33,974 bases of DNA from positions 1 to 33,974 of the forward strand of contig JAZJXK010000011.1 of the NCBI GenBank assembly GCA_040390955.1, in the 5' to 3' direction. The position numbers and the translations under genes are program-made. Positions 1,911-2,201 of this stretch are shown here, in pieces. The notes under the pieces are model-generated. The model was not told where the DNA came from, did no database searches, and worked only from the letters and a program-made list of their open reading frames with translations. How positions within the stretch are numbered: the first letter of the stretch is position 1; every line of letters starts with the position of its first letter. This stretch comes from Patescibacteria group bacterium. Lineage in GTDB: Bacteria; Patescibacteriota; Minisyncoccia; Phycocordibacterales; Phycocordibacteraceae.

Positions 1911-2201
1911 TCCGCGGTAGCTCAATGGTAGAGCAGCTCCCTGTCGAAGGCAGCTTTCTGGAGGAATCCAGATTGACAAACGAGGTGAATTCGGGGAAAC
2001 CCTAATCCTGTAAAAGGATGGGCAATCCCGAGCCAAGCTCTAACGAGTTGTTAGAGAAGGTGTAGAGACTATCCCGAAAGGGAGTAGACCGAAAGGTCGA
2101 AGCGCCTCGCATCCAGATCGGATGATGATATAGTCCACGCCCTTCGTAATAAGGGATCACGTGTAAGGAGTTGGTTGTAGGTTCGAGTCCTACCCGCGGA
2201 G
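1911..2201 (+). tRNA. tRNA-Asn(GUU) interrupted in the anticodon loop by a group I intron. Exon 1 is 1911-1944 and exon 2 is 2164-2201.
   Basis: The joined exons give a 72-nt cloverleaf.
- Acceptor stem: TCCGCGG/CCGCGGA
- D arm: GCTC-AATGGTA-GAGC
- Anticodon stem: GCTCC/GGAGT
- Anticodon loop: CTGT|TAA (anticodon GTT)
- Variable loop: TGGTT
- T arm: GTAGG-TTCGAGT-CCTAC
- Discriminator: G

The U1-A72 pair, G73 and overall sequence closely resemble Bacillus and E. coli tRNA-Asn as I remember them. CCA is not encoded. Confidence 0.85.
1945..2163 (+). ncRNA. Group I self-splicing intron, IC3-like, 219 nt, with no internal ORF
   Basis: Splice sites: the 5' exon ends in U (1944), which pairs as a U-G wobble with G1950 in a P1 helix (CUGU 1941-1944 / GCAG 1950-1953). 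The intron ends in G (2163).

Helices that are directly complementary:
- 1957-1962/1967-1972, with a GGAA loop
- 1991-1996/2026-2031
- 2000-2008/2016-2022
- 2038-2044/2050-2056
- tentative P3: 1981-1987/2103-2109
- tentative P7: 2067-2072/2130-2135
- GAAA-capped hairpins at 2073-2082 and 2087-2098

Core strings match the Azoarcus tRNA-Ile intron as I recall it:
- GAAGGUGUAGAGACUA (2056-2071)
- GGCAAUCCCGAGCCAAGCU (2021-2039)
- AAUUCGGGGAAACCCUAA (1988-2005). Confidence 0.85.

Follow-up and report, generated by a model that had tools for sequence, protein, structure and literature searches.

A tRNA-Asn(GUU) gene of a predicted Patescibacteria-like host, split by a group I intron of the Asn.4Ug type

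The split tRNA-Asn gene and its intron

Positions 1911-2201 of the 33,974-nt contig analyzed here (the whole of which we call the window) very probably constitute a functional and expressed gene for tRNA-Asn(GUU) in a candidate phyla radiation (CPR) bacterium, interrupted after U35 by a 219-nt group I ribozyme that lacks an open reading frame (ORF). The two exons lie on the plus strand at 1911-1944 (TCCGCGGTAGCTCAATGGTAGAGCAGCTCCCTGT) and 2164-2201 (TAAGGAGTTGGTTGTAGGTTCGAGTCCTACCCGCGGAG), with 219 nt between them (1945-2163) and the break falling between anticodon nucleotides 35 and 36. The 5' exon spans tRNA positions 1-35, with a D-loop that lacks nt 17, and ends in U35, the base that precedes the intron (U-1); the 3' exon runs from U36 to the discriminator G73. 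ARAGORN analysis of the joined exons returns a canonical 72-nt cloverleaf, tRNA-Asn(GTT), with the anticodon loop CUGU|UAA. A junction scan of metagenome contigs in which both middle bases were left free (pattern GTAGAGCAGCTCCCTKKTAAGGAGTTGGT) corroborated this product: among the 120 uninterrupted loci listed, 20 tRNA-Asn genes are identical to the exon join over 72 of 72 nt. Each of our three large collection scans lists 120 loci from at least 120 matches, and the proportions given below describe these samples. The ARAGORN join and the junction scan together bear out the original prediction, made from the letters of the window without database searches, of a tRNA-Asn(GUU) split by a 219-nt intron between nucleotides 35 and 36. 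The CCA end is not encoded past the discriminator (G2201), where the next letters are GCAUC.

Searching the insert with the Rfam model Intron_gpI (RF00028) gave 72.2 bits against a gathering threshold of 50 (E = 1.2e-16, full model 1-253), which agrees with its prediction as a group I intron. The predicted folding energy is -82.3 kcal/mol, compared with -62.4 ± 4.6 for shuffled sequences (z = -4.34), and a minimum free energy (MFE) fold restricted to nested pairs independently gives P2, P3, P4, P5, P6a, P7.1, P7.2, and P8. The intron has the architecture of a group I ribozyme throughout. P1 (1941-1953), read from the sequence, pairs the exon bases CUGU (1941-1944) with the internal guide GCAG (1950-1953) through C1941-G1953, U1942-A1952, G1943-C1951, and the wobble U1944.G1950, which marks the 5' splice site, and is extended by c1945-g1949; all four exon-guide pairs are invariant in 35 of 35 homologs. 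The last exon base is therefore a U in a P1 wobble and the terminal intron base, omega-G, is G2163, both as foreseen. P2 is a hairpin (UCUGGA/UCCAGA, 1957-1962/1967-1972) with the GNRA loop GGAA. P3 joins CGAGGUG (1981-1987) to CGCCUCG (2103-2109), and P4 (1991-1996/2026-2031) encloses J4/5 (AAA), P5 (2000-2002/2020-2022), and P5a (2005-2008/2016-2019). P6 (GCC/GGU, 2032-2034/2059-2061) is followed inward by P6a (2038-2044/2050-2056). The 5' strand of P7 (2065-2071) consists of G2065, a bulged A2066, and GACUA (2067-2071), its partner being UAGUCC (2131-2136), before which lies J8/7 (AUGAUA); P3 and P7 form a pseudoknot, and from general knowledge of group I introns we take P7 to be the guanosine-binding helix. 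Between P7 and the 3' strand of P3 a peripheral insertion (2072-2098), seen in the sequence and in the MFE fold, contributes P7.1 (2072-2083) and P7.2 (2087-2098), both with GAAA loops, so that the GNRA caps expected from the sequence are present in L2, L7.1, and L7.2. P8 (CAUCC/GGAUG, 2110-2114/2120-2124) and P9 (CCCUU/AAGGG, 2140-2144/2151-2155, loop CGUAAU) complete the fold; P9 was read from the sequence, and homologs carry GNRA-capped hairpins at this place.

The helices were read from the sequence and then scored on a MAFFT alignment, not fitted to structure, of the window intron and 34 ORF-less homologs (35 sequences). Paired cells amount to 89.9%, as against 71.8% in shuffles and 35-46% when partners are slid by one to three columns, and changes on both sides occur in 37 of 58 pairs, a number reached by 0 of 500 shuffles. 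All six P2 pairs changed on both sides (97% of cells paired), and compensatory changes were seen in four of seven pairs of P3 (99.6% paired), four of six of P4 (99.5%), five of five counted pairs of P6a, and three of five of P8 (95%), while P6 shows one C-G to G-C swap, in eight sequences. P3, P4, P6, P6a, and P8 are each at least 95% paired, and the six pairs of P7 are invariant in 35 of 35 sequences. Two placements of P1 were tried and rejected. The Rfam alignment, which is correct for the core from P3 to P9, puts P1 on a hairpin at 1885-1903, ahead of the 5' end of the tRNA; and a covarying extension of P1 into the anticodon stem was discarded because the base after GCAG is an invariant C, so that only hosts with G31 extend the helix and the window does not.

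We infer that splicing occurs and needs no protein. The pre-tRNA would be transcribed from a possible promoter with TATAAT at 1873-1878 as far as a terminator hairpin at 2220-2235, and the intron would fold into P1-P9 plus the P7.1/P7.2 extension. P1 would present U1944.G1950, and a free guanosine bound in P7 would attack after U1944; omega-G (G2163) would then take the place of the guanosine, the 3'-OH of U1944 would attack after G2163, and exon ligation would restore the loop CUGUUAA. RNase P, 3' trimming, and CCA addition would complete the tRNA. The host, also predicted to have a reduced genome, can be placed from the housekeeping genes of the window: its RpoD is 91% identical to proteins of 'Patescibacteria group bacterium', and on this resemblance we assign it to the Patescibacteria/Paceibacteria-like (CPR) bacteria with reduced genomes.

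Several points weigh against a functional, self-splicing gene. The exon contributes only 4 bp to P1, the next position being a C1940 x C1954 mismatch, and the potential for P10 is almost nil. Covariation is weak in P7.1/P7.2 (64-72% paired), since two architectures are combined in the alignment, and in P9 (56% paired), where the MAFFT register is poor. A second, uninterrupted tRNA-Asn gene may lie outside the 34-kb window. Metagenomes commonly contain alleles that have the same exons and no intron, which makes the intron dispensable for the lineage.

Some of the same observations favor an alternative in which the gene is a relic, its intron being dead or poorly splicing and Asn being decoded by another tRNA-Asn from outside the window: no more than 34 kb of the genome is in view, metagenomes abound in intronless alleles that share these exons, and P1 is short with negligible P10. 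We consider this improbable, since the window intron retains all 62 columns that are invariant in the alignment of the subfamily, every core helix is intact, the exons are identical to functional-looking uninterrupted genes, and the interrupted arrangement persists across genomes whose synonymous sites are mutually saturated. Each tRNA species is usually encoded by one gene in CPR genomes, which also speaks against a further tRNA-Asn. Similarly, Lui et al. 2021 obtained complete tRNA sets for circularized CPR genomes only when group I introns were taken into account (PMC8172020), although the supplements of that paper do not name the tRNAs affected. If the window gene is the sole tRNA-Asn gene, all AAC and AAU codons would depend on an RNA-catalyzed reaction (in eight housekeeping ORFs of the window, Asn accounts for 2.5% of 3627 codons), a dependence already accepted for other intron-split bacterial tRNAs.

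A further alternative is that splicing is protein-assisted and that a neighboring gene for an HNH protein has been kept as a maturase, instead of or besides its role as a DNA endonuclease. This free-standing gene (1478-1828, minus strand, 116 aa) is divergent from the tRNA gene, with its start 82 nt from the tRNA 5' end, and its product matches PHROG 2255 'HNH endonuclease' (E = 1.4e-24). Comparison with its homologs indicates purifying selection, the non-synonymous value (pN) being 0.11-0.20 and the synonymous one (pS) a saturated 0.70-0.98, and the HNH gene lies divergently, 34-153 nt away as measured to annotated starts, beside intron-split tRNA-Asn in nine independent loci including the window, where it stays even when the intron is of a different lineage. 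Nevertheless, 48 of 50 ORF-less Asn loci have no HNH gene nearby, a window-type HNH gene adjoins an uninterrupted tRNA-Asn in one locus (L374), and the protein retains its catalytic HNH residues, a sign of nuclease activity. We know of no HNH maturase of group I introns, and on balance we find a maturase here very unlikely.

The splice frame

The intron ends in ...CACGUG and therefore offers U-1 and omega-G in two frames: 1944|2164 yields the loop CUGU|UAA (Asn) and 1942|2162 the loop CU|UGUAA (Thr). ARAGORN in its default run (introns disallowed) reports no tRNA anywhere in the 34-kb window, and with introns allowed it calls Thr(tgt) i(33,219) because of these two frames. The original prediction overlooked this competing frame, as it did the adjacent HNH gene. 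If the call were right, the split gene would be a tRNA-Thr(UGU) with the intron after U33 (after U1942, omega-G being G2161) and the loop CUUGUAA. Apart from the ARAGORN call and the availability of U at -1 and G at omega, the seed list of Williams includes an entry, 'Thr.2Ug', whose P1 is likewise cuguc/GGCAG, and BLAST typing of the tRNA body is not decisive, since it shifts with the anticodon: in BLAST the body with the Asn anticodon has tRNA-Asn as its best matches, and once the anticodon is swapped to Thr the matches shift to Lys, Thr, and Asn (tRNA-Lys being the best match in E. coli, and phage matches being mixed Thr/Asn). The ambiguity is common to the site, as a G is usual at omega-2 (2161 in the window; introns ending in GNG) and occurs there in 53 of 71 introns.

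The frame is decided by the position of the wobble and by uninterrupted genes. U1942 is in a Watson-Crick pair with A1952, and the sole U.G pair of P1 is the invariant U1944.G1950. All 71 introns at the site have U-1 and omega-G in the Asn frame, whereas 18 of the 71 lack omega-G in the Thr frame. At the two free bases of the junction scan the 120 uninterrupted loci listed have GT (Asn) in 89 cases, among them the 20 genes identical to the Asn-frame join, TT in 31 (tRNA-Lys with an unrelated body), and TG (Thr) in none. The U1-A72 pair and discriminator G73 also fit bacterial tRNA-Asn and not tRNA-Thr. The tRNA-Thr(UGU) call was rejected on the wobble position and the comparison with uninterrupted genes, and we regard it as practically refuted.

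A related case may exist among published introns. The Williams seed 'Pgr210.Thr.2Ug' has the P1 cuguc/GGCAG with its wobble at the fourth base, and on this pairing it may be a mis-framed tRNA-Asn. For annotation, the gene is thus missed by ARAGORN in default mode and mislabeled as Thr in intron mode, and its splice frame can be called correctly only from the U.G wobble or by reference to uninterrupted genes. As standard tRNA finders miss the gene, CPR genomes of this kind will appear to have no tRNA-Asn unless introns are allowed for during annotation.

Relatives of the intron

We compared the intron with published group I introns of bacterial tRNA genes. Williams 2020 mapped group I introns in 81,441 assemblies (80,413 bacterial and 1,028 archaeal), so that the bacterial tRNA settings recorded for such introns increased from 4 to 21. 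Its seed alignment includes an entry 'Pam37.Asn.4Ug' (bioRxiv 10.1101/2020.01.27.920355). This intron shares with the one in the window the host tRNA-Asn(GUU), the site CUGU/UAA (loop position 4, nt 35/36), U-1, omega-G, and an insertion between P7 (GAGACUA) and P3' (AGCGCC). The two are 76% identical over the shorter sequence, with the common runs GGTGAATTC, GGAAACC, AGAGACTA, CGGATGATGA, and ATAGTCCAC. Pam37.Asn.4Ug differs in a longer P1/P2 region and in having a single long P7.1-type hairpin (GGAUGAGGAGCC...AAUAA...UCC), whereas the window and other CPR genomes have two GAAA-capped mini-hairpins. A Phormidium locus from our census (L046) is, by eye, close to this seed over most of its length. 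The remaining literature that we found on tRNA-Asn group I introns consists of mitochondrial and plastid papers and of a survey of cyanobacteria in which the sequences called 'group I introns' (22-49 nt) are not ribozymes.

The original prediction likened the intron to the subgroup IC3 ribozyme of Azoarcus, and part of this likeness stands. Reinhold-Hurek and Shub reportedly described the IC3 intron in pre-tRNA-Ile(CAU) of Azoarcus sp. BH72 in 1992. Like the window intron, the Azoarcus IC3 intron (Aol6.Ile2.5Ug in Williams' alignment) is compact (about 200 nt), ORF-less, located in the anticodon loop, and furnished with a GNRA-capped P2. The Azoarcus-type seed and the window have the runs AATTCGG, CCGAGCCAAGCT, GAAGGTGTAGAGACTA, and ATAGTCC in common at 67% overall identity, and three exact shared runs of 7-16 nt correspond to IC3 core strings from P3 to P7, so the likeness in core strings noted in the prediction is real (AATTCGG, CCGAGCCAAGCT, GAAGGTGTAGAGACTA). 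The architecture does not conform. Where Azoarcus has GAC between P7 and P3', the window has the 31 nt of P7.1/P7.2, which is at odds with the short junction of IC3; J8/7 is AAGGCAUAGUCC in Azoarcus and GAUGAUAUAGUCC in the window; and the Azoarcus host and site are Ile2, after nt 36. In IC3 introns a GNRA L9 docks into an 11-nt receptor in P5, and L2 into P8. The GAAA loop of Azoarcus P9 docks into a CCUAAG..UAUGG receptor, whereas the window has CGUAAU as L9 and a non-canonical receptor. The L2 loop of the window is GGAA, and its P5 reads CCCUAAUCC...GGAUGGG, which by sequence is only receptor-like.

Phage introns of subgroup IA typically carry a P7.1/P7.2 extension between P7 and P3', as the window intron does; examples are the IA2 introns of T4 td and of Staphylococcus phage Twort (orf142-I2). 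In blastn the intron core is 72-74% identical to introns that interrupt the DNA polymerase genes of phages of Ralstonia, Pseudoalteromonas, and Rhizobium, and the core signature used for our census occurs at no fewer than 124 places in IMG/VR viral contigs (120 loci listed, L249-L368), 6 of the 124 being in tRNA-like calls. About 95% of the listed viral cores thus lie outside tRNA-like calls, presumably in protein-coding genes. The phage introns differ from the window intron in interrupting protein-coding genes, and the phage pool may be a reservoir of the intron subfamily. Among the Williams seeds, the insertion between P7 and P3' is also found in the Asn.4Ug, Lys.2Ug, Phe.2Ug, Leu.1Ug, and tmRNA introns. 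Based on the P7.1/P7.2 extension, the likeness to phage cores, and the seeds with the same insertion, we therefore filed the window intron, by sequence comparison, as a member of the published Asn.4Ug type and did not assign it to IC3.

For a census we used the signature AGAGACTA N15-45 AGCGYC N8-38 GATGAKATAGTCC, which was built from the intron's own subfamily, had 0 matches in 100 shuffles of the window, and was applied to one genome per species of GTDB. Among the 120 GTDB matches listed, 110 lie inside split tRNA genes; of these, 70 are in tRNA-Asn exactly at CUGU/UAA, 16 in tRNA-Phe, 14 in tRNAs with CAU anticodons, and 4 in Tyr-like tRNAs. The Asn hosts among these matches belong to many classes of Patescibacteria and to Cyanobacteria, Acidobacteriota, Nitrospirota, Elusimicrobia, Margulisbacteria, and proteobacterial metagenome-assembled genomes. 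The intron type is accordingly already described and widespread, and the idea that an Asn host and this insertion point were without precedent falls to the Williams seed Pam37.Asn.4Ug and to the 70 listed matches at the site. Phage genes, tRNA-Phe, tRNA-Tyr, and tRNAs with a CAU anticodon are further common hosts of the subfamily.

The same guide, GCAG, also pairs with CUGU in tRNA-Tyr (GTDB loci L045, L097, L101, and L022; Williams seed Tyr.4Ug). The seed Asp.4Ug shows this pairing in tRNA-Asp (Williams 2020, bioRxiv 10.1101/2020.01.27.920355). The tRNA-Asn, -Tyr, and -Asp hosts of this guide all have anticodon loops with G34-U35, and one guide could have allowed the intron to hop among such tRNAs, for example by reverse splicing.

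Occupants of the site, the HNH gene, and the flanks

The insertion site is polymorphic for the intron, the 20 intronless genes with the window's exons (among the loci listed) being identical to it at the site. In two further loci, L122 and L372, the exons are identical to those of the window and yet the intron is of a different, compact lineage and measures 184-188 nt. This lineage (179-199 nt overall) lacks P7.1/P7.2, has a different P3-P6 sequence with the core GATATCGGTGAA...CACCGAGGGAAC...GCGCCGTAGAGACTAGATACC, and lies beside the same HNH gene; some of its members fall below the Rfam gathering cut-off. Its loci (L122:2168-2428(-), L372:870-1126(-), L124, L369, L370, and L375) belong to sister CPR genomes with identical or nearly identical exons.

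The 219-nt intron of the window contains no endonuclease ORF. Long introns of 519-602 nt occupy the same site in 21 other genomes, and one locus (L053, 450 nt) retains only an HNH remnant. The full-length long variants carry an HNH endonuclease of 100-135 aa (Pfam PF01844) in the P1 loop; among them are L001, L019, L020, L025, L029, L042, L051, and L054, and further L060, L070, L075, L084, L086, L100, and L120. The HNH ORF of these introns runs through the internal guide, P2, and P3, so conserved ribozyme sequence doubles as the coding sequence of the conserved protein tail ..LQL....VVEKSGEFRE. The intron is mobile, now or recently, and its subfamily is horizontally mobile.

The product of the free-standing HNH gene of the window is 40-57% identical (tblastn) to the endonucleases encoded within the long variants of this intron. 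At E <= 1e-10 the protein has 174 homologs, and the 120 listed show 67-84% identity and are almost all 112-120 aa long; the catalytic motif CxxC..HH..N..CH is kept in the window protein. A homolog abuts tRNA-Asn in every locus with enough flanking DNA. The nine loci with a divergent HNH gene and an intron-split tRNA-Asn are the window, L041, L122, L124, L127, L369, L370, L372, and L375, and in L015 a 25-aa HNH remnant lies beside an intron-split tRNA-Asn. Five further loci have a divergent HNH gene beside split tRNA-Phe or CAU genes. Tandem HNH genes, on the same strand and 33-47 nt upstream of an uninterrupted tRNA-Asn, were found in two independent cases (L146/L185 and L374). The HNH gene is thus divergent where the tRNA has an intron and tandem where it is uninterrupted. 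An HNH neighbor is present at 2 of the 89 intronless loci listed and at 2 of the 50 ORF-less intron loci of the GTDB sample, so the HNH gene predicts a tRNA-Asn neighbor, but tRNA-Asn does not predict an HNH neighbor.

This pattern fits a free-standing homing endonuclease that would work alongside the intron, a reading that does not account for the strict orientation rule or for the tandem intronless cases. We speculated further, and only tentatively, that the split tRNA-Asn and the divergent HNH gene are one long-lived selfish module. The HNH enzyme would cut uninterrupted tRNA-Asn genes at or near CUGU|UAA, any group I intron at CUGU|UAA would give immunity, and gene conversion would move intron and HNH gene together ('collaborative homing'). 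Such a module would explain how two unrelated intron lineages come to share one site and the same HNH gene in sister CPR genomes with identical exons, why the HNH gene is under purifying selection, and why its homologs sit in the P1 loop of the intron in other phyla. If true, these loci would offer a natural series of the Bonocora-Shub stages of mobile-intron birth in cellular genomes, perhaps in a single-copy essential tRNA.

Zeng, Bonocora, and Shub are said to have described in 2009 the 'collaborative homing' of a cyanophage psbA intron with the endonuclease F-CphI. The F-CphI/psbA system and T4 SegB resemble the window in that a small endonuclease is encoded not within the intron but next to the gene that is interrupted or targeted, and, as the Bonocora-Shub pathway predicts, homologs of the window HNH sit inside the intron in other genomes. 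A report on SegB and the T4 tRNA gene cluster indicates that a free-standing endonuclease can target tRNA gene regions (PMC2330249). Unlike these systems, the window belongs to a cellular CPR chromosome and the putative target is a single tRNA gene; the window enzyme, judged by its sequence, is of the HNH and not the GIY-YIG type. A window-type HNH gene beside an uninterrupted tRNA-Asn (L374) is also not predicted by a simple model in which the intron gives immunity. The conserved endonuclease gene is the fresher lead offered by the locus, as a testable natural system for the association of an intron with a homing endonuclease.

Downstream of the tRNA gene, the window contains a class I fructose-bisphosphate aldolase gene (2310-3323, minus strand; Pfam E = 2.7e-131) that is convergent with it and is followed by a gene for a GlpX-type fructose-1,6-bisphosphatase, the pair occupying 2310-4310 on the minus strand of this CPR genome. 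In none of the fetched relatives do the aldolase and GlpX genes adjoin tRNA-Asn. A GC-rich hairpin at 2220-2235 with T-runs on both strands is likely a bidirectional terminator for the tRNA gene (plus strand) and the aldolase gene (minus strand). Upstream, the sequence TTGCTG-18 nt-TATAAT (1849-1878, plus strand) suggests a possible promoter 33 nt from the tRNA, with an exact TATAAT at 1873-1878 and a weak -35 element that falls below the rule of the promoter scanner (>=4/6 matches in the first hexamer). An AT-rich hairpin of 8 bp (1885-1903; CAATCAAC-TCT-GTTGATTG, then TATATATT), which follows the putative -10 box and precedes the tRNA, could be a leader structure or an attenuator.

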